The notes under the pieces: model-generated | Told to the model about the DNA's origin: nothing | Database searches by the model: none | What the model saw: only the letters and a program-made list of their open reading frames with translations | Made by a program: the position numbers and the translations under genes | Part shown: piece by piece, positions 10,201 through 26,545 of the stretch | Position numbering within the stretch: position 1 is the first letter of the stretch | Layout of the letters: every line of letters begins with the position of its first letter | From: Mustelus asterias | Lineage: Eukaryota | NCBI RefSeq assembly: GCF_964213995.1 | Contig: NW_027590117.1 | Location: forward strand, 3,162,001-3,226,000 | DNA length: 64,000 bases | Direction: 5' to 3'

Positions 10201-13029
10201 AGTGGTCTCTGTTCTCAAACAGGGCACAGACACAGAAATCAAATTACAGAATACTGATTAGAATGCAAATCTCTACAGCCAGCCAGGTCTTAAATGCACA
10301 GACAATGTGGGTGGAGGGAGCATTCAACACAGGTTAAAGAGATGTGTATTGTCTCCAGACAGTACAGCTTGTGAAATTGTGCAAGTCCAGGAGTCAAGCT
10401 GTGGGGGTTACTGATAATGTGACATAAATCCAACATCCCGGTTTAGACCGTCCTAATGTGTGCGGAACTTGGCTATCAGTTTCTGCTCAGTGACTCTGCG
10501 CTGTCGTGTGTTGTGAAGGCCGCCTTGGAGAACGCTTACCTGAAGATCCAAGGCTGAATGCCCGTGACTGCTGAAGTGCTCCCCCACAGGAAGAGAACAG
10601 TCTTGCCTGGTGATTGTCGAGCGGTGTTCATTCATCCGTTGTCGTAGCGTCTGCATGGTTTCCCCAATGTACCATGCCTCGGGACATCCTTTCTTGCAGC
10701 GTATCAGGTAGACAACGTTGGCCGAGTTGCAAGAGTATGTACCGTGTACCTGGTGGATGGTGTTCTCACGTGAGATGATGGCATCCGTGTTGATGATCCG
10801 GCACGTCTTGCAGAGGTTGCTGTGGCAGGGTTGTGTGGTGTCGTGGTCACTTGTTCTCCTGAAGGCTGGGTAGTTTGCTGCGGACAATGGTCTGTTTGAG
10901 GTTGCGTGGTTGTTTGAAGGCAAGAAGTGGGGGTGTGGGGATGGCCTTGGCGAGATGTTCGTCTTCATCAATGACATGTTGAAGGCTCCGGAGGAGATGC
11001 CGTAGCTTTTCCGCTTCGGGGAAGTACTGGACGACGAAGGGTACTCTGTCCACCGTGTCCCGTGTTTGTCTTCTGAGGAGGTCGGTGCGGTTTTTCACTG
11101 TGGCACGTCGAAACTGTTGATCGATGAGTCGAGCGCCATATCCTGTTCTTATGAGGGCATCTTTCAGCGTCTGGAGGTGTCTGTTGCGATCCTCCTCATC
11201 CGAGCAGATCCTGTGTATTCGGAGGGCTTGTCCGTAGGGGATGGCTTCTTTTACGTGTTTAGGGTGGAAGCTGGAGAAGTGGAGCATCATGAGGTTATCC
11301 GTGGGCTTGCGGTACAGTGAGGTGCTGAGGTGACCATCCTTAATGGAGATGCGTGTGTCCAAGAATGCAACCGATTCCGGAGAGTAGTCCATGGTGAGTC
11401 TGATGGTGGGATGGAACTTGTTGATGTCATCATATAGTTTTTTTCAGTGATTGCTCACCATGACTCCAAAGGAAGAAAATGTCATCGATGTATCTAGTGT
11501 ATAGCATCGGTTGAAGGTCCTGTGCGGTGAAGAAGTCTTGTTCGAACCTGTGCATGAAGATGTTGGCATATTGAGGTGCGAATTTTGTCCCTATGGCTGT
11601 TCCTTGTGTCTGGATGAAGAACTGGTTGTTGAAGGTGAAGATATTGTGATCCAGGATGAAGCGGATGAGTTGTAAAATTGCATCTGGAAACTGGCAGTTG
11701 ACGGCATTGAGTACTGAGGCCGTTGCAGCAATGCCATCATCGTGGGGGATGCTGGTGTAGAGTGCCGAGACATCCATTGTGACGAGGAGTGCTCCTGGTT
11801 CAACTGCTCCATGTGTGTTGAGTTTCTGTAGGAAGTCCGTAGTGTCGCGACAAAAGCTGGGGGTTCTTTGTACAATGGGTTTCAAGATGCCCTCGACATA
11901 GCCGGAGAGGTTCTCGCACAGGGTTCCGTTTCCTGAAACGATGGGACGGCCGGGTGTGTTTGCCTTGTGTATTTTTGGGAGGCAGTAGAGATCTCCAACG
12001 CGTGGAGTACGTGGGATGAGAGCACGGAGGGTGCTCTGAAGGTCCGGATCAAAGGTTTTGATCAGAGTGTTGAGTTGACGGGTGTGTTCTTTGGTCGGAT
12101 CTGTGGGTAACTGTCTGTAGTGTTCCTCATTGTTCAGTTGTCGGTACACTTCTTTGCAGTAATCCCTTCTGTTCAGTATGACGATGGCCCCTCCTTTGTC
12201 TGCTGGTTTGATGACAATGTTGCGGTTGGTCTTGAGAGCGTGGATGGCGTTGCGTTGTGCTTGGGTGATGTTCGGTGCTGTCTTGTGAGTGCGGCTGATG
12301 AATTTGGTGTTGACGCACCTCCTGATGGCTTGGGCATACATGTCAAGTCGAGGGCAGCGGCCTTCCGGAGGAGTCCAATTCGACTCTTTCCTCTTCGGTT
12401 GCACTGCGGGTCTCTCTGTCTGCTGTTCCGGTTCATTAGCTGTCTCATTGTGTTCGCTGTTGGCCTCTTGGGGTTTGTGGAAGAACTCCCGCAGCCTCAT
12501 TCGCCTGATGAATTCCTCTGTGTCCGCTGCGAGACTGATGGGGTCTATTTTGGTAGTGGGGCAAAAGTTGAGCCCTCGGCTGAGAACTTCGATTTCATCT
12601 GGCTGAAGTGTGTAGTCCGATAGGTTGACAATGGACTTTCCTGCAGTGGTACTGTTTTCTACTGTGATACCGGGGGAGGCTTGGTTGCTGCTGGTGGTGA
12701 TGCCGAGTTTCTCAAGTTTCCTGTTCTTGGTGTGCATGTAGATGGTGTCGTTCCTTTGTCTCGTCTGCTTGGCAGAGTTTCGCAGCTGGTCTGCGTCCTG
12801 AGCGCAGGTTGAGACTATGGATTCGATCTTGGTTTCCAGGCTGCGGCGTTTGCTGTAGAGTTGGTGTATGAGGTGTTTGAGGAGGGTGAGAGAGGTGTGA
12901 CGGCACAGTCTCTCAGCGTAGTCCGTGTTAAAGGTTGACCTGAGTGGGTTCGTGATCCGTAGTCCTTTCGGTATCTTGTCTGCTTTCTTGCATGTTTGTA
13001 GAAACTTGATGTCTGTAACAGAGACCACT

Positions 13030-13066
13030 CCATCTGACGAAGGAGCATTGCTCCGAAAGCTTATGG
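13030..13066 (+). ncRNA. Minimal type I hammerhead ribozyme in inverted 5' pLTR
   Basis: CCAT-CTGACGA-AGGAGCATTGCTCC-GAAA-GCTT-ATGG, identical to the copy at 10164..10200. Confidence 0.85.
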
Positions 13067-13509
13067 TATTTGCTACCAAATAAACCTGTTGGACTTTAAC
13101 CTGGTGTTGTGAGACTTCTTATTATAACGGGGCCAGGTTTAAAAACACAAAAGCAAAGAGTCACGACCCGAAACGTTAACTCTGTCTCTCTCTCTCTCTT
13201 CACAAAAGCTGCCGGAGCTGCTGATTATTTGCAGCATTTTCTGTTTTGATTCCATATTTCAAAGCTCCGGGTTTGTGGAAACTCTTGTGTGTGAAGGGCG
13301 GCTCTGGAAGGGTTTGTGTGGGGAGCTGTGTTTCGCTTCCATTGTTCATAAACGGGTTGAAATTGGCGGTTGCAGAAACTGGAGGTGGAGCTGAAAGATC
13401 AGGGGCCGTTCTGTGTGTGTGTGTCAGTCCGGCTCTCTCCTCCCTCCCGCTCTGTGTTTAATCTTCACTCTGTCTCCTCCCCTCTCTGCTCTCACTCCGC
13501 CTTTCTGAG

Positions 13510-13535
13510 TCAGGTCGGGGCGGGCTGTATAAAAG
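13510..13535 (+). promoter_or_regulatory. H4 proximal promoter (site II-like element, GC box, TATA)
   Basis: 'tcaggtcggggcgggctgTATAAAA', ~60 bp upstream of the ATG. Confidence 0.7.
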
Positions 13536-13581
13536 GAGCCTGAAAAAGTTCCTGTCTCATATTGCGCAGTGATCTGAGTGA

Positions 13582-13902
<321 letters not shown>

Positions 13903-13936
13903 ACAACTGCAACCTTCCTCCCGAACACACAACAAA

Positions 13937-13977
13937 GGCTCTTTTAAGGGCCACTCACCGCTTCACAGAGAGAGCAG
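13937..13977 (+). terminator. Histone 3' stem-loop and HDE (H4)
   Basis: GGCTCTTTTAAGGGCC at 13937..13952 (one G-U pair), downstream AGAGAGAGCAG. Confidence 0.9.
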
Positions 13978-15173
13978 TGACCTGGGGACGGAGCTGGGAC
14001 AGGCTGTTCAGTGTTTGAGATGCATGTTTGTTTTGTTTAGGTTACAGTGCGGGAATCACCGAATTTAACATTTCATTTGGAGCAGCCATGCGGATTGTTT
14101 TTGAAATTTAGTGTATTGTCGAATCAGCCCACAGTTGACATGTGCCCTCAGTGAAACGCCACATCACTCCTGCCTAATCACAGTGTTTTCATAGTGTATC
14201 AAAGCTTTCTCTGGAATAGCGGAGTTTAGTAGCAGCAGCCGGTGAATCGTTCACTGGAACCAGTCCCAGTTGTGATGCTATTTGCGCCCAGACGGTTGTT
14301 TCCTGCACTGAAACTGACAGGCTTTGTGAAACTGATCAGTTTCCGCTCAGTCATTCACAAACCCGCAATTCCCGCAGTTTGAGCCGCTCCAACCCCAGCC
14401 TGCTTCTGATTGGCCATCCTCTCCACATTCGCAGCTCTGAACCAATCGCAGAGCATCGAATGTGAACATTGAGCCAATCATTGGCTTCAACTGTCAACCG
14501 GCAGAAATTTTGAATTGGGGGGAAATGCCGCCAATTTCAGCGCGGGAAAGGGAATTGAGACAAATTCTTAACTTATTAAAAATAGATTCTCAATTAATAT
14601 TCTGCTGTAAGATTATTTTACAAAGAGGTTTCATTTCTGAACATTTGTCCGCCACGGGCGGCAAACGGTTCTATTCAGTAATGTCAAACGGGACAAATAT
14701 GAAGTCACTCTCTGTAACAAACAACAGACTCAACCCCTTTCACACCGGCTTCAGGGAGACACAGAGAAGGATTCTGATCCTTTCCCGGAAACGGCGGCGA
14801 ATGTTACAAGCGGCACGAGAGGGGAAATCTGAATGGGCTGGAGAGCAGAGGGACAGGGATCGAGTGGAACAGCGGGAGATTCTGGGAATGAACAGCCCAG
14901 AGAGCGGGGAAAGGGTCTAAAGCACTAAGGGCAGGGAGATAGACTTCTTCAATATTTCGAGTCATGTTTGTTTTAATAAGGACGGGATAAATAGCCGTCT
15001 TTTATACAGACGGCTATTTCCTGCATCGAAAACGGCCCAATTTCTGAAAGGCGCGGTTAACAAAACAACCGAACCAATCAGAACCTGAGTTACAGACATT
15101 AATTCCCTGGTCAGAGTTTGATTGAAACTTCCTGGGCCAATTCCCGCTGGGGGCGGTTCCTCACAGAGTTTAA

Positions 15174-15644
<471 letters not shown>

Positions 15645-15673
15645 ACCCCGACTTCAGCACCAAGTACAACAAC

Positions 15674-15714
15674 GGCTCTTTTAAGAGCCACCAAATCGGC
15701 AAATGAAAGAGCTG
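15674..15714 (+). terminator. Histone 3' stem-loop and HDE (H3)
   Basis: GGCTCTTTTAAGAGCC at 15674..15689; AAAGAGCTG at ~15706. Confidence 0.95.
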
Positions 15715-16375
15715 CGATCTCCTGTTAACGATTCTAGTGTTTGAATTCCCAGGACAGAATATTCCCAGGACTCCAGTACTGAAACCTCTCAATGTTACAA
15801 TTAACCCTCCGTTGCATTGAGGTCACTCATATCTCCAATCCTTCGATGGTTGGAGTAAAAACGATGCCGTTAACAGTTCTACCGCAATTCAATTTTAAAG
15901 TGGTTTTATTAAACCTGCGATCATTTCAGTTTCCGAGCAATAATTCCGCAAATCCACTTTCTCCGCACATGTTTCGAGTCGCAGCGAGTGTTGAAAATTG
16001 CGTCAATTAGGTTCAGAATATGAAGCATGTCTCAAACAGGAGCCCACTCACACAGATATAGCCATTGCAGAAACGCTTGCACATTCGCATGGACAATAAT
16101 TAACACTTTTCCAGATAGTGACTGACTTTGAAAACCGATGGGCTGCAGATGAATGTCCTCGCAGACTATCACATTTTAAAGCAATTATATTTGAAATAGG
16201 ATCATTTATGTTCACTGGGATAGTTTCCCCGATAAACAGCAGCAAGTTGCATTAAAATACTGTATGTGTCAATAGTACGGATTGATAGAACAAAGCGGGA
16301 AACAGCTGTGCTGTGAATAGCAGTGCAGAAACTGACCGATAGACACCAGGTCGCCCTTTTTCAGATAAAATGAGT

Positions 16376-16391
16376 GGCTCTGAAAAGAGCC
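16376..16391 (-). terminator. Histone 3' stem-loop (H2A copy 1)
   Basis: Minus strand GGCTCTTTTCAGAGCC followed by AAAAAGGGCGA HDE. Confidence 0.95.
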
Positions 16392-16421
16392 TTTGGGTTA
16401 TCAGATGAAAGAATGGTCGCT

Positions 16422-16871
<450 letters not shown>

Positions 16872-18254: not shown

Positions 18255-18285
18255 AGTGTACAGACATCATTAACTGGTAGGTGAA

Positions 18286-21200
18286 TGATGCGCGTCAATT
18301 GAACACGAGGCACGAAGCTTCGGTAACAGAAGGCTTTTATTGTCTAACAATGGAACTAATAGAACGTAAACACACTATCCCAGACTGACGAGGTCCCGCC
18401 CGAGCAGGGGGTCTTATACCTCTCCCAGGAGGCGGAGCCCGACTGGGATGTGCCACAACAGTAACAACCACAGGTGTATTAATCCCACAGTGGGAACCAA
18501 CGATGGTTCACCACATTCACCCCTCCTTTGAGAACAAAGGCCGGCGGGGTACGAAAACAGACTAAAATGTCAACAGATTATAAGTTCAGACGGTCTGGTG
18601 GACCGCACCATCGTTGTGACCTCCTCAATACCGGCGGTGACACCGGAGTAGGTGCTTGCGGTGGCGTTCTCCCCAAAACAGCGTCCAGCTGTTCCCCCAC
18701 GGACTCACAGGCCGGTTGACCCTGATGAAGCGGTAGTGCAGGGGATCCCGGTACACTCTGCGATGGCGCCGATCTCCGGGGCTCAGGCAAGCTGTGCATT
18801 GGAGTAAAACTGTTAAGCACTGGTCCCGGTGCTGTCCGCGCCACGTCCGGGGGAGAAATAAGGGATTCGTCACTGGGGGTATGGGAGCGACAGGAGTTGC
18901 TACGTCCCCTGCGGGCGCCAGGTCTCGGATCGAGACTGTGTCCTCTCGCCCGTCAGGATATGCCACATAGGCATACTGAGGGTTGGCGTGGAGGAGGTGG
19001 ACCTGTTCGACCAAGGGGTTGGACTTGCGGGCCCTTACCTGTCGCCGCAGAAGGACGGGTCCTGGGTACGTCAACCAGGCTGGTAAAGATATCCCCGAGG
19101 ACGACTTCCGAGGGAATGAGAACATCCTCTCGTGGGGAGTAGCATTGGTTGCCGTACACAGGAGGGAGCGAATGGAGTGAAGCGCATTAGGGAGGACCTC
19201 CTGCCAATGGGAGACTGGAAGGCCTTTGGACTTCAGCGCCAATAGGACAGCCTTCCAGACTGTAGCATTCTCTCTTTCCACCTGTCCATTACCCCTAGGG
19301 TTGTAACTCGTGGTCCTACTAGAGGCAATCCCGCATGAGAGCAGGAATTGCCTCAAGTCATTACTCATGAACGACGAGCCCCTGTCGCTATGGATATAGC
19401 TGGGGTACCCGAACAGGGTAAAAAGATCACGGAATGCCTTGATCACCGTGGCAGTCGACGTGTCCGCGCAGGGGACAACAAACGGGAACCGGGAGTACTC
19501 ATCTATTATGTTCAGAAAGTACACGTTCCGATCTGTTGAGGGAAGGGGGCCCTTAAAATCCACACTCAGCCTCTCGAAGGGGCGAGTGGCCTTGACCAAA
19601 TGTGCCCGGTCAGGTCGGTAACAGTGCGGTTTGCATTCCGCGCAAATCCGACAGCTCCTTGTCACCGACCTGACGTCCTCCACCGAGTAAGGCAGGTTGC
19701 GGGCTTTGATAAAGTGGTAGAGCCGAGTGACCCCAGGATGGCACAGGTCATTATGGAGGGCGTTCAAGCGATCCTCCTGCATAGTAGCGCATGTTCCGCG
19801 CGAGAGGGCGTCCGAGGGCTCATTGAGTTTCCCTGGACGATACATGATATCGTAGTTATAGGTGGAGAGTTCAATTCTCCACCGCAAGATCTTATCATTC
19901 TTGATCTTGCCCCTCTGCGTGTTGTTGAACATGAACGCCACGGACCGCTGGTCCGTGATCAGAGTGAACCGCTTCCCCGCCAGGTAATGGCGCCAGTGTC
20001 TGACGGCCTCCACAATGGCCTGGGCCTCCTTTTCCACCGCTGAATGCCGAATTTCGGGGCCTTGGAGGGTGCGGGAAAAAAACGCGATGGGCCTGCCCGC
20101 CTGGTTCAGTGTGGCGGCCAGGGCGAAATCAGATGCATCGCTTTCCACCTGAAAAGGGATGGATTCGTCTACCGCGTGCATCGTGGCTTTCGCGATGTCG
20201 TGTTTCAATTCCTTGAAGGCCAATTGGGCCTCTGGCGTGAGTGGAAAAGTCGTGGACTTAATAAGCGGACTGGCTTTGTCCGCGTAGTTAGGGACCCACT
20301 GCGCATAATAGGAGAAGAAGCCTAGGCATCTTCTCAGTGCTTTTGCGCTAGCGGGCAAGGGAAGTTCAGCAGGGGGGCGCATACGGTCGGGATCAGGGCC
20401 AATGACCCCGTTTTCCACCACGTATCCCAGGATGGCTAACCGGCACGTATGGAATACACACTTCTCCCTATTCGAGGTCAAATTCAGGCGAGATGCAGTG
20501 CGTAAAAAGTTCTGGAGATTTGTGTCATGGTCCTGCTGATCACGGCCGCAGATGGTGACATTATCCAGGTACCGGAAGGTAGCCCGCAGCCTGTTCTGGT
20601 CCACCATTCGGTCCATAGCACGCTGGACGACCGAGACCCCATTGGTGACACCAAATGGAACCCTAAGAAACTGATACAGACGACCATCCGCCTCAAAGGC
20701 CGTGTAGTGTCGGTCCTCTGGGCGAATGGGGAGTTGGTGGTAGGCGGACCAAAGGTCTATGGTGGAGAACACCCGGTACTGCGCAATCTGATTGACCATA
20801 TCAGATATGCGCGGGAGGGGATACGCATCCAGCTGCGTATATCGATTAATGGTCTGACTGTAATCAATGACCATCCGGGGTTTGTTCCCGCTCTTGACCA
20901 CCACAACCTGTGCTCTCCACGGACTAACACTGGGCTGTATGATCCCTTCTTTGAGGAGTCGCTGAACCTCAGATCTGATGAAGATCCGATCTTCAGTGCT
21001 GTAACGCCTACTTTTAGTAGCGATGGGCTTGCAGCCTGGTACCAGATTCTTGAATAAAGAGAGTGTGGTGATCTTTAATGTAGAAAGATTGCATGCGGGG
21101 CGCTTTGGACAATTTGGAGACTGCAGCTGTTCCCCTACTGTCAGCGAAGGGAGTGGCCCACCGTACTGTAGGATCACACTCTTCATGTGGACCATAAAGT

Positions 21201-22848
21201 TTAGTCCGAGGAGAATTGGTGCGCAAAGATGCGGCAACACAAGGAGCCTGAATCGCTCGTAAATTGTGCCTTGCACTTTCAAGGTTACCACACAACGTCC
21301 TAGCACAGGGACAGACCGGGACCTTGATGCCATAGAGATTGTCTGTTTGGCAGGTTGAATCTGGAGTCCACACCTCTTTACAATGTCAGGGTGAATAAAG
21401 CTCTCAGTGCTCCCGCTGTAAAAAAGACAATAAATTGCACGACCATTTACCTGTATATCCATCATTGAACAGTCAAGCCTGTGGTGCTTAGCCTGGTTCA
21501 GGGTGATCGACGCCACCGTTGGTCCGTGAACGTCACTGCAGGCAGCTGAGGTCGATGCTGAGGACCCCTGCTGGTCGCTCATGGTCATCGTCGACCAAAA
21601 TGGCCGCCCCCATGAATCGCACATGGTTGAGGGCGCCAAACGTAGCGACTCCTGGTGGTCATCCTCCTCCGACTCCGTCGACCACAATGGCGTCGTCCTG
21701 GACTCGCACGTGGACGAACCCCGTGAGTACTTCGACGTCGATGGTGATGATCCCCGTTCCGAAGGGTCACAGGCTGCACTGCCGTTCTTGGGCTTCGATC
21801 TGCACACCTTCGCATAATGCCCCTTTTTACCGCATAGGTTACAGACCACCGCTTCAGCGGGACACTTTTGTCGTGGATGCTTGGCTCCTCCGCAGAAGTA
21901 CCACCGCGGGCCGCATGGGGCAGCAGCCGTCGTCGGGTCTACATGGGAGCACGCCATAACACTGCACTTCGAGCCCGTGAGGCGAGGAGGGATTTGCGAC
22001 TGCTCCTGCCACGTTGTCTCCACGTGGTCCTCCGGATACAGGACCAAGCTCTTCGAAGCCGCCTCAAGCATTTCAGCCAATTCCATAGCTTGGGTCAGGT
22101 TGAGATTTCCCTTTTCTAGCAGCTTGAGACGGATGTATGAAGACCCTACCCCTGCCACAAACGCATCTCGGGTGAGGTTATACATGTACTGCTCAGCCGA
22201 CACAGCTTTGCAGTCACAGCCCCTGGCAAGCTGCAAGAGCTCATTGGCGTAATCCTCCATGGTTTCGCCCGACTGCTGACGTCGTGTAGCGAGGAGGTAA
22301 CGAGCGTGGATCTCGTTGGGAGGTTTCGTGTAGCGCTTTTTTAAAAGCTCGAGGGCCCTCGGGTAAGTGGTGGCTGCACGGATCGCGAGGTAGACTGTGT
22401 CGCTTACCCTCGAATGGAGGACCCGGAGTCTGTCATCATCTGTGGTGACCGCTGCGGAGGCTGCCAGGTAGTCTTCAAAACACTTCAGCCAGTGGTCGAA
22501 GGTGTTAGAAGCGCCCACCGCACGTGGATCTAGCGTCAGACGTTCTGGCTTTAGGATTTGCTCCATACTCTCCTTTCTTTTTCCCTTCCGTCGAGAGCTT
22601 AATGTCAGACAATAAAATTGATGCGCGCCAATTGAACACGAGGCACGAAGCTTCGGTAACAGAAGGCTTTTATTGTCTAACAATGGAACTAATAGAACGT
22701 AAACACACTTTCCCAGACTGACGAGGTCCCGCCCGAGCAGGGGGTCTTATACCTCTCCCAGGAGGCGGAGCCCGACTGGGATGTGCCACAACAGTAACAA
22801 CAACAGGTGTATTAATCCCACAGTGGGAACCAACGATGGTTCACCACA
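18286..22848 (-). mobile_element. Full-length Ty3/Gypsy LTR retrotransposon (Mag-like gag), young insertion
   Basis: 230-bp LTRs at 18286..18515 and 22619..22848 (TG...CA, 3 differences by eye); 5-bp TSD GTGAA at 18281..18285 and 22849..22853; PPT 'caaaggaggggtgaa' next to the 3' LTR. Confidence 0.97.
18625..22566 (-). CDS. Gypsy gag-pol polyprotein (Gag-CCHC, PR, RT, RNase H, IN) in a single frame
   Basis: Probable start MEQILKPERL at 22566; CCHC 'CNLCGKKGHYAKVC'; PR site mutated to 'LFYSGS'; RT 'PFG...YLDN'; RNase H 'SDAS...EKEAQAI'; integrase HHCC and D-D-E ('VDFKG..SDRG..VEREN'). Confidence 0.9.
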   Translation of the reverse strand: MEQILKPERLTLDPRAVGASNTFDHWLKCFEDYLAASAAVTTDDDRLRVLHSRVSDTVYLAIRAATTYPRALELLKKRYTKPPNEIHARYLLATRRQQSGETMEDYANELLQLARGCDCKAVSAEQYMYNLTRDAFVAGVGSSYIRLKLLEKGNLNLTQAMELAEMLEAASKSLVLYPEDHVETTWQEQSQIPPRLTGSKCSVMACSHVDPTTAAAPCGPRWYFCGGAKHPRQKCPAEAVVCNLCGKKGHYAKVCRSKPKNGSAACDPSERGSSPSTSKYSRGSSTCESRTTPLWSTESEEDDHQESLRLAPSTMCDSWGRPFWSTMTMSDQQGSSASTSAACSDVHGPTVASITLNQAKHHRLDCSMMDIQVNGRAIYCLFYSGSTESFIHPDIVKRCGLQIQPAKQTISMASRSRSVPVLGRCVVTLKVQGTIYERFRLLVLPHLCAPILLGLNFMVHMKSVILQYGGPLPSLTVGEQLQSPNCPKRPACNLSTLKITTLSLFKNLVPGCKPIATKSRRYSTEDRIFIRSEVQRLLKEGIIQPSVSPWRAQVVVVKSGNKPRMVIDYSQTINRYTQLDAYPLPRISDMVNQIAQYRVFSTIDLWSAYHQLPIRPEDRHYTAFEADGRLYQFLRVPFGVTNGVSVVQRAMDRMVDQNRLRATFRYLDNVTICGRDQQDHDTNLQNFLRTASRLNLTSNREKCVFHTCRLAILGYVVENGVIGPDPDRMRPPAELPLPASAKALRRCLGFFSYYAQWVPNYADKASPLIKSTTFPLTPEAQLAFKELKHDIAKATMHAVDESIPFQVESDASDFALAATLNQAGRPIAFFSRTLQGPEIRHSAVEKEAQAIVEAVRHWRHYLAGKRFTLITDQRSVAFMFNNTQRGKIKNDKILRWRIELSTYNYDIMYRPGKLNEPSDALSRGTCATMQEDRLNALHNDLCHPGVTRLYHFIKARNLPYSVEDVRSVTRSCRICAECKPHCYRPDRAHLVKATRPFERLSVDFKGPLPSTDRNVYFLNIIDEYSRFPFVVPCADTSTATVIKAFRDLFTLFGYPSYIHSDRGSSFMSNDLRQFLLSCGIASSRTTSYNPRGNGQVERENATVWKAVLLALKSKGLPVSHWQEVLPNALHSIRSLLCTATNATPHERMFSFPRKSSSGISLPAWLTYPGPVLLRRQVRARKSNPLVEQVHLLHANPQYAYVAYPDGREDTVSIRDLAPAGDVATPVAPIPPVTNPLFLPRTWRGQHRDQCLTVLLQCTACLSPGDRRHRRVYRDPLHYRFIRVNRPVSPWGNSWTLFWGERHRKHLLRCHRRY

Positions 22849-25274
22849 GTGAAGTAATAAAACTAATAGTCTATGAAGGATTGGAATTTGTGTTACAGTT
22901 GCAGAAAACTCTGTTCAGACCCCATTGAGATCACTGTGTTCATCCCAGGAAGATTAGATTGGCCTTGGAGTGGGAGCAGCAGAATTTCACCAGTGATGCC
23001 AGACTCAAATGATGAGGACAGATTGCAAAGACTAGTCCTGTAATAACCTGAACATGGAAGATTAAGTGGTGATGTGAGTGAGATGTTTACAGTGAATGAT
23101 TTGATAGGGTGCAGAGAGATAAACTGTTAGAATGAAAACAGATGGGTGACGTTGAGAGGGGCTGGGAGAAAGCAGTCCGTGCAGGGATCCCCGGTGGTCG
23201 TTCCCCTTAGCAACAAGTATTCCACTTTGGATACGGTTGAGGGGGATGGCATACCAGTGGTGAGCCGCAGTGAGAGGATCTCCGGCACTGTGTCCGTCTC
23301 TGTGGCTCGGGAGGGTAAGGGGCAGAGCGGGAGGGCAATAGTAATTGGGGACTCGTTAGTTAGAGGGATAGATAGGAGGTTCTGTGGCAGCAAAAGAGAC
23401 TCACGGATGGTATGTTGCCTACCGGATGCCAAGGTCCGTGACGTCTCAGACCGTGTTTTCCGGATTCTGAAGGGGGAGGGGAAACAGTCACAAGTCGTGG
23501 TACACATTGGTACCAATGACATAGGTAAGAGAAGGGACGGGGATTTAAAGCAGGAATTTCTGGAGCTGGGCTGGAAGCTGAGAGCCAAGACAAAACATGT
23601 GGTCATCTCTGGTACGTTGCCGGTGCCATGTGATAGCGAGTTGAGGAACAGGGAGAGAGTGCAGTTAAACATGTGGTTGCAGGGATGGTGTCGGAGGGAG
23701 GGTTTCAGATACGTGGATAATTGGAACACATTCTGGGGAAGGTGGGACCTGTACAAACAGGACAGGCTGCACCTGAACCAGAGGGGCACCAATATCCTGG
23801 GAGGGAAATTTGTTACGGCTCTTCAGGGGGGTTTAAACTAATTTGTCAGGGGAGTGGGAAAAGGAGTTGTAGTCCACAAGTCAGTGAGGGTGGTGAGGTA
23901 TTGGGGAAGGTATCAGGGTCAAGGGTGGGTACCGGTAGACAGGAAGGTGGGTTGAAGTGTGTCTACTTCAATGCAAGGAGCATCCGGAACAAGGTAGATG
24001 AACTTGGGGCGTGGATTGGTACTTGGGACTATGATGTTGTGGCCATTACGGAGACGTGGGTAGAACAAGGACAGGAATGGTTGTTGGATGTTCCGGGGTA
24101 TAGATGTTTCACTAAGTGTAGGGAAGCTGGTAAAAGAGGTGGAGGAGTGGCATTGTTAATCAAGGATAGTTTAACGGCTGCGGAAAGGCACTTCAAGGGG
24201 GATCTGCTCACTGAGGTAATATGGGCTGAGGGTAGAAATAGGAAAGGAGCGGTCACGTTGTTAGGAGTTTACTATAGGCCCCCAAATAGTAATAGAGATG
24301 TGGAGGAAGAAATTGCTAAGCAGATTATGCATATGTGTGGGGGTCACAGGGTAGTTAGACTTTAACTTTCCAAATATTGATTGGAACCTTTGTAGGTCAA
24401 ATAGTTCGGATGGGGCAGTTTGTGTGCAGTGTGTACAGGAGGGTTTCCTGACACAATATGTGGATAGGACGACAAGAGGTGAGGCCACATTGGATTTGGT
24501 ACTGGGAAATGAACCGGGCCAAGTGTTAGATTTGGTTGTGGGAGAGCACTTTGGAGATAGTGACCACAATTCGGTGCCTTTTGTTATTGCAATGGCGAGG
24601 GATAGGGCCATACGACAGGGCAAGGTTTACAATTGGGGGAGAGGTAATTATGATGCGATTAGGCAAGAATTAGGGGGCATAAGTTGGGAACAGAAACTGT
24701 CAGGGAAAGGAACTAATGAAAAGTGGAACTTTTTCAAGGAACAAATACTGGATGTCCTTGATAGGTATGTCCCTGTCAGGCAGGGAGGAAATGGCCGAGT
24801 GAGGGAACCATGGTTCACGAAAGAGGTGGAATGTCTTGTGAAAGGGAAGAGGGAAGCTTATGTAGGGATGAGGAAACAAGGTTCAGATGGCTCGATTAAG
24901 GGTTACAAGTTAGCAAGGAATGAGCTGAAAAAGGGGCTTAGGAGAGCTAGGAGGGGACACAAGAAGTCCTTGGCGGGTCGGATCAAGGAAAGCCCCAAGG
25001 CTTTTTACTCTTATGTGAGGAATAAAAGAATGACCAGGGTGAGGTTAGGGCCGGTCAAGGACAGTAGTGGGAACTTGTGTATGGAGTCAGTAGAGATAGG
25101 CGAGGTGATGAATGAATACTTTTCTTCAGTGTTCATCAAGGAGAGGGGCCATGTTTTTGAGGAAGAGAAGGTGTTACAGGCGAATAGGCTGGAGGAAATA
25201 GATGTTTGGAGGGAGGATGTCCTGGCAGTTTTGAATAAACTGAAGGTCGATAAGTCCCCTGGGCCTGATGAAAT

Positions 25275-25615
25275 AATAGAAATCATAGAAACCCTACAGT
25301 GCAGAAGGAGGCCATTCGGCCCATCGAGTCTGCACTGACCACAATCCCACCCAGGCCCTACCCCCACATATTTTACCTGCTAATCCCTCTAACCTACACA
25401 TCTCTGGACTCTTATGGGCAATTTTTAACCTGGCCAATCAACCTAACTTGCACATCTTTGGACTGTGGGAGGAAACCGGAGCACCCGGAGGAAACCCACG
25501 CAGAAACGAGGAGAATGTGCAAACTCCACACAGACAGTGACCCGAGCTGGGAATCGAACCTGGGACCCTGGAGCTGTGAAGCAGCAGTGCTAACCACTGT
25601 GCTACCGTGCCGCCC
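25275..25615 (-). mobile_element. HE1/V-SINE-like SINE nested in CR1 ORF2
   Basis: Near identical to 8151..8497; interrupts 'GPDE|MYPR'. Confidence 0.9.
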
Positions 25616-26364
25616 AATGTAGCCAAGGATTCTTTGGGAGGCAAGGGATGAGATTGCAGAGCCTTTGGCTTTGATCTTTGGGTCCTCGCTGTCCACGGGG
25701 ATGGTGCCAGAGGACTGGAGAATGGTGAATGTTGTTCCTCTGTTTAAGAAAGGGAATAGAAATGACCCTGGTCATTATAGACCTGTTAGTCTTACTTCGG
25801 TGGTTGGTAAATTGATGGAAAAGGTCCTTAGAGATGGGATTTACGACCATTTAGAAAGTTGCGGATTAATCCGGGATAGTCAGCATGGATTCGTGAAGGG
25901 CAAGTCGTGCCTCACAAATTTGATAGAATTTTTTGAGGAGGTAACTAAGTGTGTTGATGAAGGTAGGGCAGTTGATGTCATATACATGGATTTTAGTAAG
26001 GCGTTTGATAAGGTCCCCCATGGTCGGCTTATGATGAAAGTGAGGAGGTGTGGGATAGAGGGAAAGTTGGCCGATTGGATAGGTAACTGGCTGTCTGATC
26101 GAAAACAGAGGGTGGTGGTCGATGGAAAATTTTCGGATTGGAGGCAGGTTGCTAGCGGAGTGCCGCAGGGATCAGTGCTTGGTCCACTGCTCTTTGTGAT
26201 TTTTATTAATGACTTAGAGGAGGGGGCTGAAGGGTGGATCAGTGAATTTGCTGATGACACCAAGATTGGTGGAGTAGTGGATGAGGTGGAGGGCTGTTGT
26301 AGGCTGCAAAGAGACATAGATAGGATGCAAAGCTGGGCTGAAAAATGGCAAATGGAGTTTAAAC

Positions 26365-26545
26365 CATAGAAACCCTACAGTGCAGAAGGAGGCCATTCGG
26401 CCCATCGAGTCTGCTCCGACCACAATCCCACCCAGGTCCTACCCCCACATATTTACCCGCTAATCCCTCTAACCTACGCATCCCAGGACTCTAAGGGGCA
26501 ATTTTTAACCTGGCCAATCAACCTAACCCGCACATCTTTGGACTG
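26365..26545 (-). mobile_element. HE1-like SINE 3' half nested in CR1 ORF2
   Basis: Matches the 3' half of 8151..8497; interrupts the 'MEFNPDKC' motif. Confidence 0.85.

Follow-up and report, generated by a model that had tools for sequence, protein, structure and literature searches.

Introduction

In Tf1 and Tf2 of S. pombe, in Tj1, in Tosmo1-3 and in the Tf1/sushi chromoviruses, the primer is part of the element's own RNA, which anneals to the PBS and is released by cutting (PMC10085805, PMC4600332). Plants provide further cases. Self-priming is predicted for Tcn1 (gypsy) and for TAR, Houba and Osr-1 (copia) from PBS-LTR complementarity of at least 10 bp (PMC6317226), and these plant lineages show that self-priming arose more than once. 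The demonstration has so far come from fission-yeast Tf1, with self-priming otherwise attributed mainly to chromovirus relatives and some plant lineages.

Here we describe a retrotransposon in a 64,000-nucleotide stretch of DNA from Mustelus asterias (the window). Like the Tf1/sushi elements, it belongs to Ty3/Gypsy and has no tRNA PBS; its PBS is complementary to its own 5' LTR, and a cut would free a 3'-OH. Our literature search on the priming of this lineage returned no account.

Results

The element lies on the minus strand and has the following features.

22848..18286, minus strand: whole element, with two 230-bp LTRs, TSD, PPT and one ORF
22849..22853, with the other copy at 18281..18285: TSD, TTCAC
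22619..22848, minus strand: 5' LTR, 230 bp, TG...CA, ending CATCA at 22619; three differences from the 3' LTR
22746..22751, minus strand: candidate TATA box, TATAAG, from the sequence
22715..22721, minus strand: initiator TCAGTCT, predicted start A = 22719, from TATA spacing and locus L265
22683..22689, minus strand: R stretch GTTCCAT, predicted by MFE fold to pair with the gag start ATGGAGC (22566..22560)
22668..22682, minus strand: putative self-primer segment in R, TGTTAGACAATAAAA, with the predicted cut between 22669 and 22668
22603..22618, minus strand: one-base spacer A (22618) and PBS complementary to the element's own R, TTTTATTGTCTGACA (22617..22603)
18625..22566, minus strand: single gag-pol ORF, comprising Gag with zinc knuckles, PR, RT with YLDN, RNase H and IN
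18516..18529, minus strand: polypurine tract
18286..18515, minus strand: 3' LTR, 230 bp

The TG...CA LTRs, the TSD, the PPT, the domain order and an RT whose best match among solved structures is Ty3 RT (E 8.5e-48) are those of Ty3/Gypsy, and the element is a young LTR retrotransposon of this group. Pfam detected zinc-knuckle, protease, RT, RNase H and integrase domains in the ORF, in the order PR-RT-RNase H-IN; the protease active-site motif is altered in the window copy. As an initial annotation of this DNA had stated, the TSD is 5 bp long (TTCAC at both ends) and a chromodomain is absent, both from the ORF by Pfam and from the precomputed Pfam lists of the homologs shown. The empty-site joint, with five shared letters, was present in contigs of all four runs examined.

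The insertion sits in a histone gene cluster (window 13510..16865, with an H3 ORF at 15174..15644 and other histone-like ORFs). Retroelement fragments with RT-like ORFs, putatively Penelope-like and CR1-like, flank the region (window 11430..13118 and 23131..26369). Since the flank of the element is common to three other loci (L001, L003 and L004), the insertion was duplicated together with the histone cluster.

Directly after the 5' LTR, the sense strand reads A (22618) and then TTTTATTGTCTGACA (22617..22603). TGG, with which the PBS of the tRNA-primed class starts, is absent, and the longest tRNA match to the PBS was 6 nt among 26 distinct tRNA genes sampled, an incomplete set. This comparison had been proposed in the initial annotation, and its outcome agrees with the claim made there that the element is without a tRNA PBS. 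Rfam gave no match, and the viral contigs searched held no relative. As first annotated, 15 nt of the PBS form an antiparallel duplex with TGTTAGACAATAAAA (22682..22668), in which one pair is G-U. A 15-nt run was found in none of 5000 shuffled LTRs (0/5000), where the maximum was 14, reached twice. Thirteen of the pairs have predicted probabilities of 0.81-1.0; the remaining two, which lie closest to the end of the LTR, have 0.59 and 0.26. At the G-U place, 27 of the 29 family loci printed carry the Watson-Crick letter, and G occurs in the window and in the duplicate sharing its flank; the G-U is private to the window insertion.

The genome was searched with the pattern AATAAAAGCC-N36-62-CATCAATTTTATT, and with the reversed pattern as a control. 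There were 10,569 matching junctions in the same genome and none for the reversed control. All 108 normal 5' LTRs that we fetched have at least 12 Watson-Crick pairs, and 71 of them have 15/15. Given that the seven pairs nearest the LTR end are partly fixed by the search pattern, covariation was tested only on the other eight, which are variable. Over 18 segment types, 135 of 144 variable pairs hold, whereas 10,000 shuffles averaged 72 and never exceeded 100. Since the PBS varies among these 18 types, they cannot all be matched by one host RNA. Another family of this genome, with a Gag ~55% identical, has its own pair, switching from GCT/AGC to GCG/CGC on both sides. A paired change in a single copy is seen at locus L087.

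A blind scan for pairing was performed on a metagenome set of 80 loci, 53 of them with enough upstream DNA. Among these 53 testable loci, 40 contain a perfect duplex of 10-18 bp, with 37 starting exactly 1 nt after the CA; in the shuffle control, only two loci reached 10 pairs in any of 30 shuffles. Eight distinct segment types in this set end in GTTAAA, TTTAAA, TGAAGA, GATAAAA, GATAGA or GATTAA and not in AATAAA or ATTAAA, indicating that the pairing is independent of the poly(A) hexamer. The nearest named homologs come from sharks and rays (73-82% RT identity), and further ones from cnidarians, tunicates, nematodes, crustaceans and insects. A self-pairing PBS in place of a tRNA site is thus shared by thousands of related copies within this genome and by dozens of families from other animals. 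The compensatory changes between PBS and LTR segment that the initial annotation had suggested looking for are present in both sets. The pairing is real, conserved, covarying and under selection, and its register is fixed 1 nt after the LTR's CA.

The surroundings of the duplex also show some regularity. RCC follows the segment in most families, and an RCCT...AGGY hairpin begins directly after the predicted cut in metagenome loci L061, L063, L068, L072 and L081. When L148 is compared with L149, the PBS complementarity of L148 extends to 19 nt via two letters matching R, the pattern expected if the flank had been replaced by a copy of a longer primer.

Integrated cDNAs provide a second line of evidence. 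At locus L162, a full LTR is followed by A and then by an inverted LTR that runs from AATAAAA back to TG, with the TSD GAGAG. A genome search recovered 147 junctions in which the PBS is extended by sequence complementary to R, and further searches recovered more. The 172 such loci that were fetched comprise 99 two-U3-end insertions with a 4-5/5 TSD, 7 that continue past the PPT into internal sequence, 5 without a TSD, 57 that are incomplete and 4 duplicates. One palindromic product (L199) carries the window's same 15-nt segment. In the palindromic loci, the strand that exits U5 thus passes in register into sequence of the R segment. Together, these cDNAs and the covariation across families support the self-priming put forward in the initial annotation, and we consider it very likely that the element is primed by its own RNA. 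The palindromic loci do not discriminate between a primer from the 5' end, a primer from the 3' end and a mis-jump of plus strong-stop DNA. Tf1 cDNA often retains a single-stranded PBS copy (PMC11042837), and such a retained copy offers, by analogy, a route to palindromes.

The genome contains ~150 or more near-perfect 500-bp LTR palindromes (L171-L347), which would give long dsRNA if transcribed. In L272 (506..1381) and L276 (4961), an integrase-made end with a TSD lies at a cryptic GCGCATCA inside the integrase gene, on the opposite strand, where it mimics an LTR end.

A further class of fossils consists of incomplete loci that start with a minus-sense U5 copy that folds back. Three pattern searches returned 31 rows, which after removal of 3 duplicates and 2 chance matches left 26 distinct events; 6 more from outside the patterns brought the census to 32. 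In 20 of the 32, the fold-back terminates at the proposed cut, no more than 0-4 letters from the GGC complementing the GCC that follows AATAAAA. The others end beyond the cut (5 events, by about 9-12, 26, 70, 80 and 104 nt), are short (5) or are complex (2), and none of the 32 ends at the predicted cap. The 20 cut-site events represent 6 U5 types, and 17 of them have a 4-5/5 TSD. Homology at the fold-back end is only 3-4 nt, and in each of the 18 events checked the following 5-52 nt offer 4-24 sites with homology just as good. Of the cut-site events, 7 have no room for a second T after GGC and 3 require at least one T; only an end at ...GGCT satisfies all of them, if CpG decay is assumed in two. 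This end would place the 5' end of the template at the last A of AATAAAA, with the primer ending AAUAAA and the DNA starting AT. A two-nucleotide CA/AT end is also found in retroviruses and Ty3. The window's own family contributes none of the 20 cut-site fossils, and the window cut between 22669 and 22668 is transferred by alignment.

One locus bears on the other end of the primer. In L265 (G000:C16:52867026, plus strand), the 5' LTR is followed by a primer copy that reaches back exactly to the initiator, and then by 3' UTR, PPT and 3' LTR. A search of the genome for a second cap-stop fossil besides L265 found none. Structurally, L265 is a TRIM-like mini-element, the product of one aberrant second jump.

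The best-supported geometry is an internal cut of the 5' R between AATAAA and AGCC, at ~+51, with the capped fragment priming, and on the sequence evidence this is probably how the element works. The fossil cDNAs suggest that the 5' R would be cut at this site and that the upstream capped fragment would remain on the PBS and prime. Minus strong-stop DNA would then consist of U5 and only the part of R after the cut, starting AT at the CA/AT end and ending ...GGCT, and its jump would take it to the 3' R, at a point after the hexamer and before the poly(A) site. Copying of an untrimmed primer by the plus strand, or by a folded-back minus strand, could yield the palindromic two-U3-end products that became integrated. 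By analogy with Tf1 only, the cutting may be done by the element's RNase H; trimming of the primer to ~15 nt in the normal course would likewise be an analogy. Several observations count against a 5' cut, namely that the cap-stop fossil is a single case (L265), that 5/32 fold-backs extend beyond the cut, and that segment and U5 are swapped together in L408. Moreover, the inverted arms run past the initiator into U3 in 99 of the 100 examined, and the 5' model therefore needs a further jump onto the 3' R.

Those U3 arms favor an alternative in which the 3' copy of R primes. The RNA 3' end would be cut or trimmed back to AAUAAA and would pair with the PBS, circularising the RNA, and the long upstream R would serve the first jump. 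This proposal could also account for the arms past the PPT (7/172), for some crossovers upstream of the segment, and for a modest asymmetry in U3, where the inverted copy agrees with the U5 haplotype at more sites than the forward copy (28 vs 13, p=0.03). A 3' primer would leave the 5' R intact and unpaired, however, and minus DNA should therefore reach the cap; none of the fold-backs does so, and 20/32 stop at the proposed cut. In addition, the primer in L265 has the initiator as its 5' end. Because of the fold-back ends and L265, we disfavor priming from the 3' R and regard it as improbable.

Recombinant LTRs were examined in several ways, and neither the arm comparison nor the mosaic mapping favored a 5' cut. 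A leave-one-out test of arm against U5 haplotype gave 25 vs 23 R sites and 12 vs 13 loci, with no asymmetry in R, and the idea that heterologous arms favor a 5' cut was rejected on the same 25 vs 23 sites. Mosaic mapping of 132 LTRs revealed 15 switches, which are spread over R on either side of AATAAA; this region is AT-rich and homoplasy is likely there. Both recombinant kinds occur in three-marker haplotype counts, in which the U3-edge marker is homoplastic. U5 alone is swapped in L421, L427 and L428, which counts in favor of the 5' cut. One element has LTRs (L415 and L416; G000:C7:139736918 and 139740844) that differ from each other in their subfamily alleles, both at the primer segment and in U3.

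A second alternative follows Tf1 more closely: transcription would start at or near the segment, the primer would be the RNA 5' end, and the TATA/initiator match would be irrelevant. This geometry is known for Tf1 and relatives (PMC10085805), and the invertebrate families, in which a start site was not identified, leave room for it. The promoter motifs argue against it. TATAAG (22751..22746) lies 32 nt upstream of the initiator A (22719), and a predicted +1 at 22719 would put the segment at +38..+52. Among 30 pattern-selected loci, 28 have a TATA box that precedes AATAAA by 75-80 nt, and 14 of the 17 segment types examined keep a distance of 31-33 nt from TATA to initiator. In 17 of 18 types, R just upstream of the segment can form a 6-9 bp duplex with the start codon of gag. 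These duplexes are individually weak against shuffles, and such a helix requires that stretch in the RNA; the pseudoknot-free MFE fold contains local hairpins in the loop along with the AUG helix. The primer copy in L265, which stops at the initiator, also speaks against a start at the segment, and we find such a start hard to credit. Promoter motifs and L265 point instead to an internal primer and, with the fold-back ends after AATAAA, support the non-Tf1 geometry that the initial annotation had raised, relative to a predicted start.

With an internal primer, the duplex may also hide the 5' AATAAA and, with the second helix, the gag AUG, by analogy only. The hiding of the poly(A) signal, again suggested in the initial annotation, is possible in this genome and finds no footing in the 8 metagenome segment types whose partner has neither AATAAA nor ATTAAA. 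Poly(A) masking would be at most secondary, because the partner segment often lacks AATAAA. A last proposal, in which concealing the poly(A) signal of the 5' LTR is the main role of the duplex, a host RNA fragment, a protein or a de novo start provides priming, and the clustered fold-back ends reflect pausing of the RT where it meets the duplex, could draw on the AATAAA in the segment of all families sampled in this genome (where the search pattern required AATAAA) and on the partial sampling of host tRNAs (26 distinct genes), but is the least probable of the three, given types in other animals that pair in the same register without AATAAA/ATTAAA, a PBS that differs among 18 types in one genome such that no single host RNA fits, and a best match of 6 nt to the sampled tRNAs with none in Rfam.

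Finally, the RT motif of the element is YLDN (residue 669), not YXDD. In 133 aligned homologs, this column holds N in 96 and D in 34, and the N codons are both AAT and AAC. RNase H catalytic residues are kept in 128-130 of the 133, and the integrase acidic residues are conserved too. YXDD members with a self-pairing PBS also occur (e.g. L069, L079 and L113). A link between YXDN and RNase H-dependent self-priming is speculation.

Discussion

If internal-cut priming is true of sharks and rays, cnidarians, tunicates, nematodes and arthropods, tRNA-independent priming would be a major route in animals; one vertebrate genome alone holds >10,000 junctions. Annotation tools requiring a tRNA PBS would be expected to under-call such elements. 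The proposal yields a one-nucleotide prediction for the cut in the RNA duplex and a natural YXDN RT for study, and it makes reverse-transcription intermediates readable from genome assemblies. In its fullest form, to which we would give an even chance, a very large, animal-wide, chromodomain-less Gypsy lineage independently evolved a new self-priming geometry. The capped RNA would be cut internally and precisely at a duplex of measured length (14-15 bp), in a process coupled to masking of the poly(A) signal and the start codon and carried out by a natural YXDN RT with slowed polymerase balanced by RNase H, and the fossils would map the cut and the primer 5' end to ~1 nt.

The nearest parallel for the RT motif is Ty1 D211N, in which the second YXDD aspartate is likewise replaced by asparagine. 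This variant keeps polymerase activity in vitro and loses transposition, which is partly suppressed by RNase H mutations (PMC2148107). Ty1 D211N is a laboratory mutant without transposition, whereas here 96 of 133 natural homologs have N and the lineage stands at thousands of copies.

Dictyostelium Skipper is also a Gypsy element with a pyrimidine-rich, non-tRNA PBS; in contrast to the element described here, it has a chromodomain, and no complementary LTR segment was found in it (PMC5006619). Tcn1 and TAR differ in belonging to plant lineages, with Tcn1 a chromovirus, and no mapped cut site appears in the account consulted (PMC6317226); the cut site proposed here is placed by fossils.

The closest comparison is with Tf1/sushi. 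The element has the PBS of that class, complementary to its own LTR and not to a tRNA, but it has no chromodomain at the integrase C-terminus, and the RT motif in its lineage is mostly YXDN. In Tf1, the primer is the RNA 5' end (the first 11 nt) within a three-duplex 'pretzel', in which U5 pairs with both flanks of the PBS; here, promoter motifs and L265 would place it internally, at a predicted +38..+51. The duplex here is 14-15 bp long, is separated from the LTR by a 1 nt spacer, is followed by a conserved RCC, and is accompanied by a predicted AUG-pairing helix.
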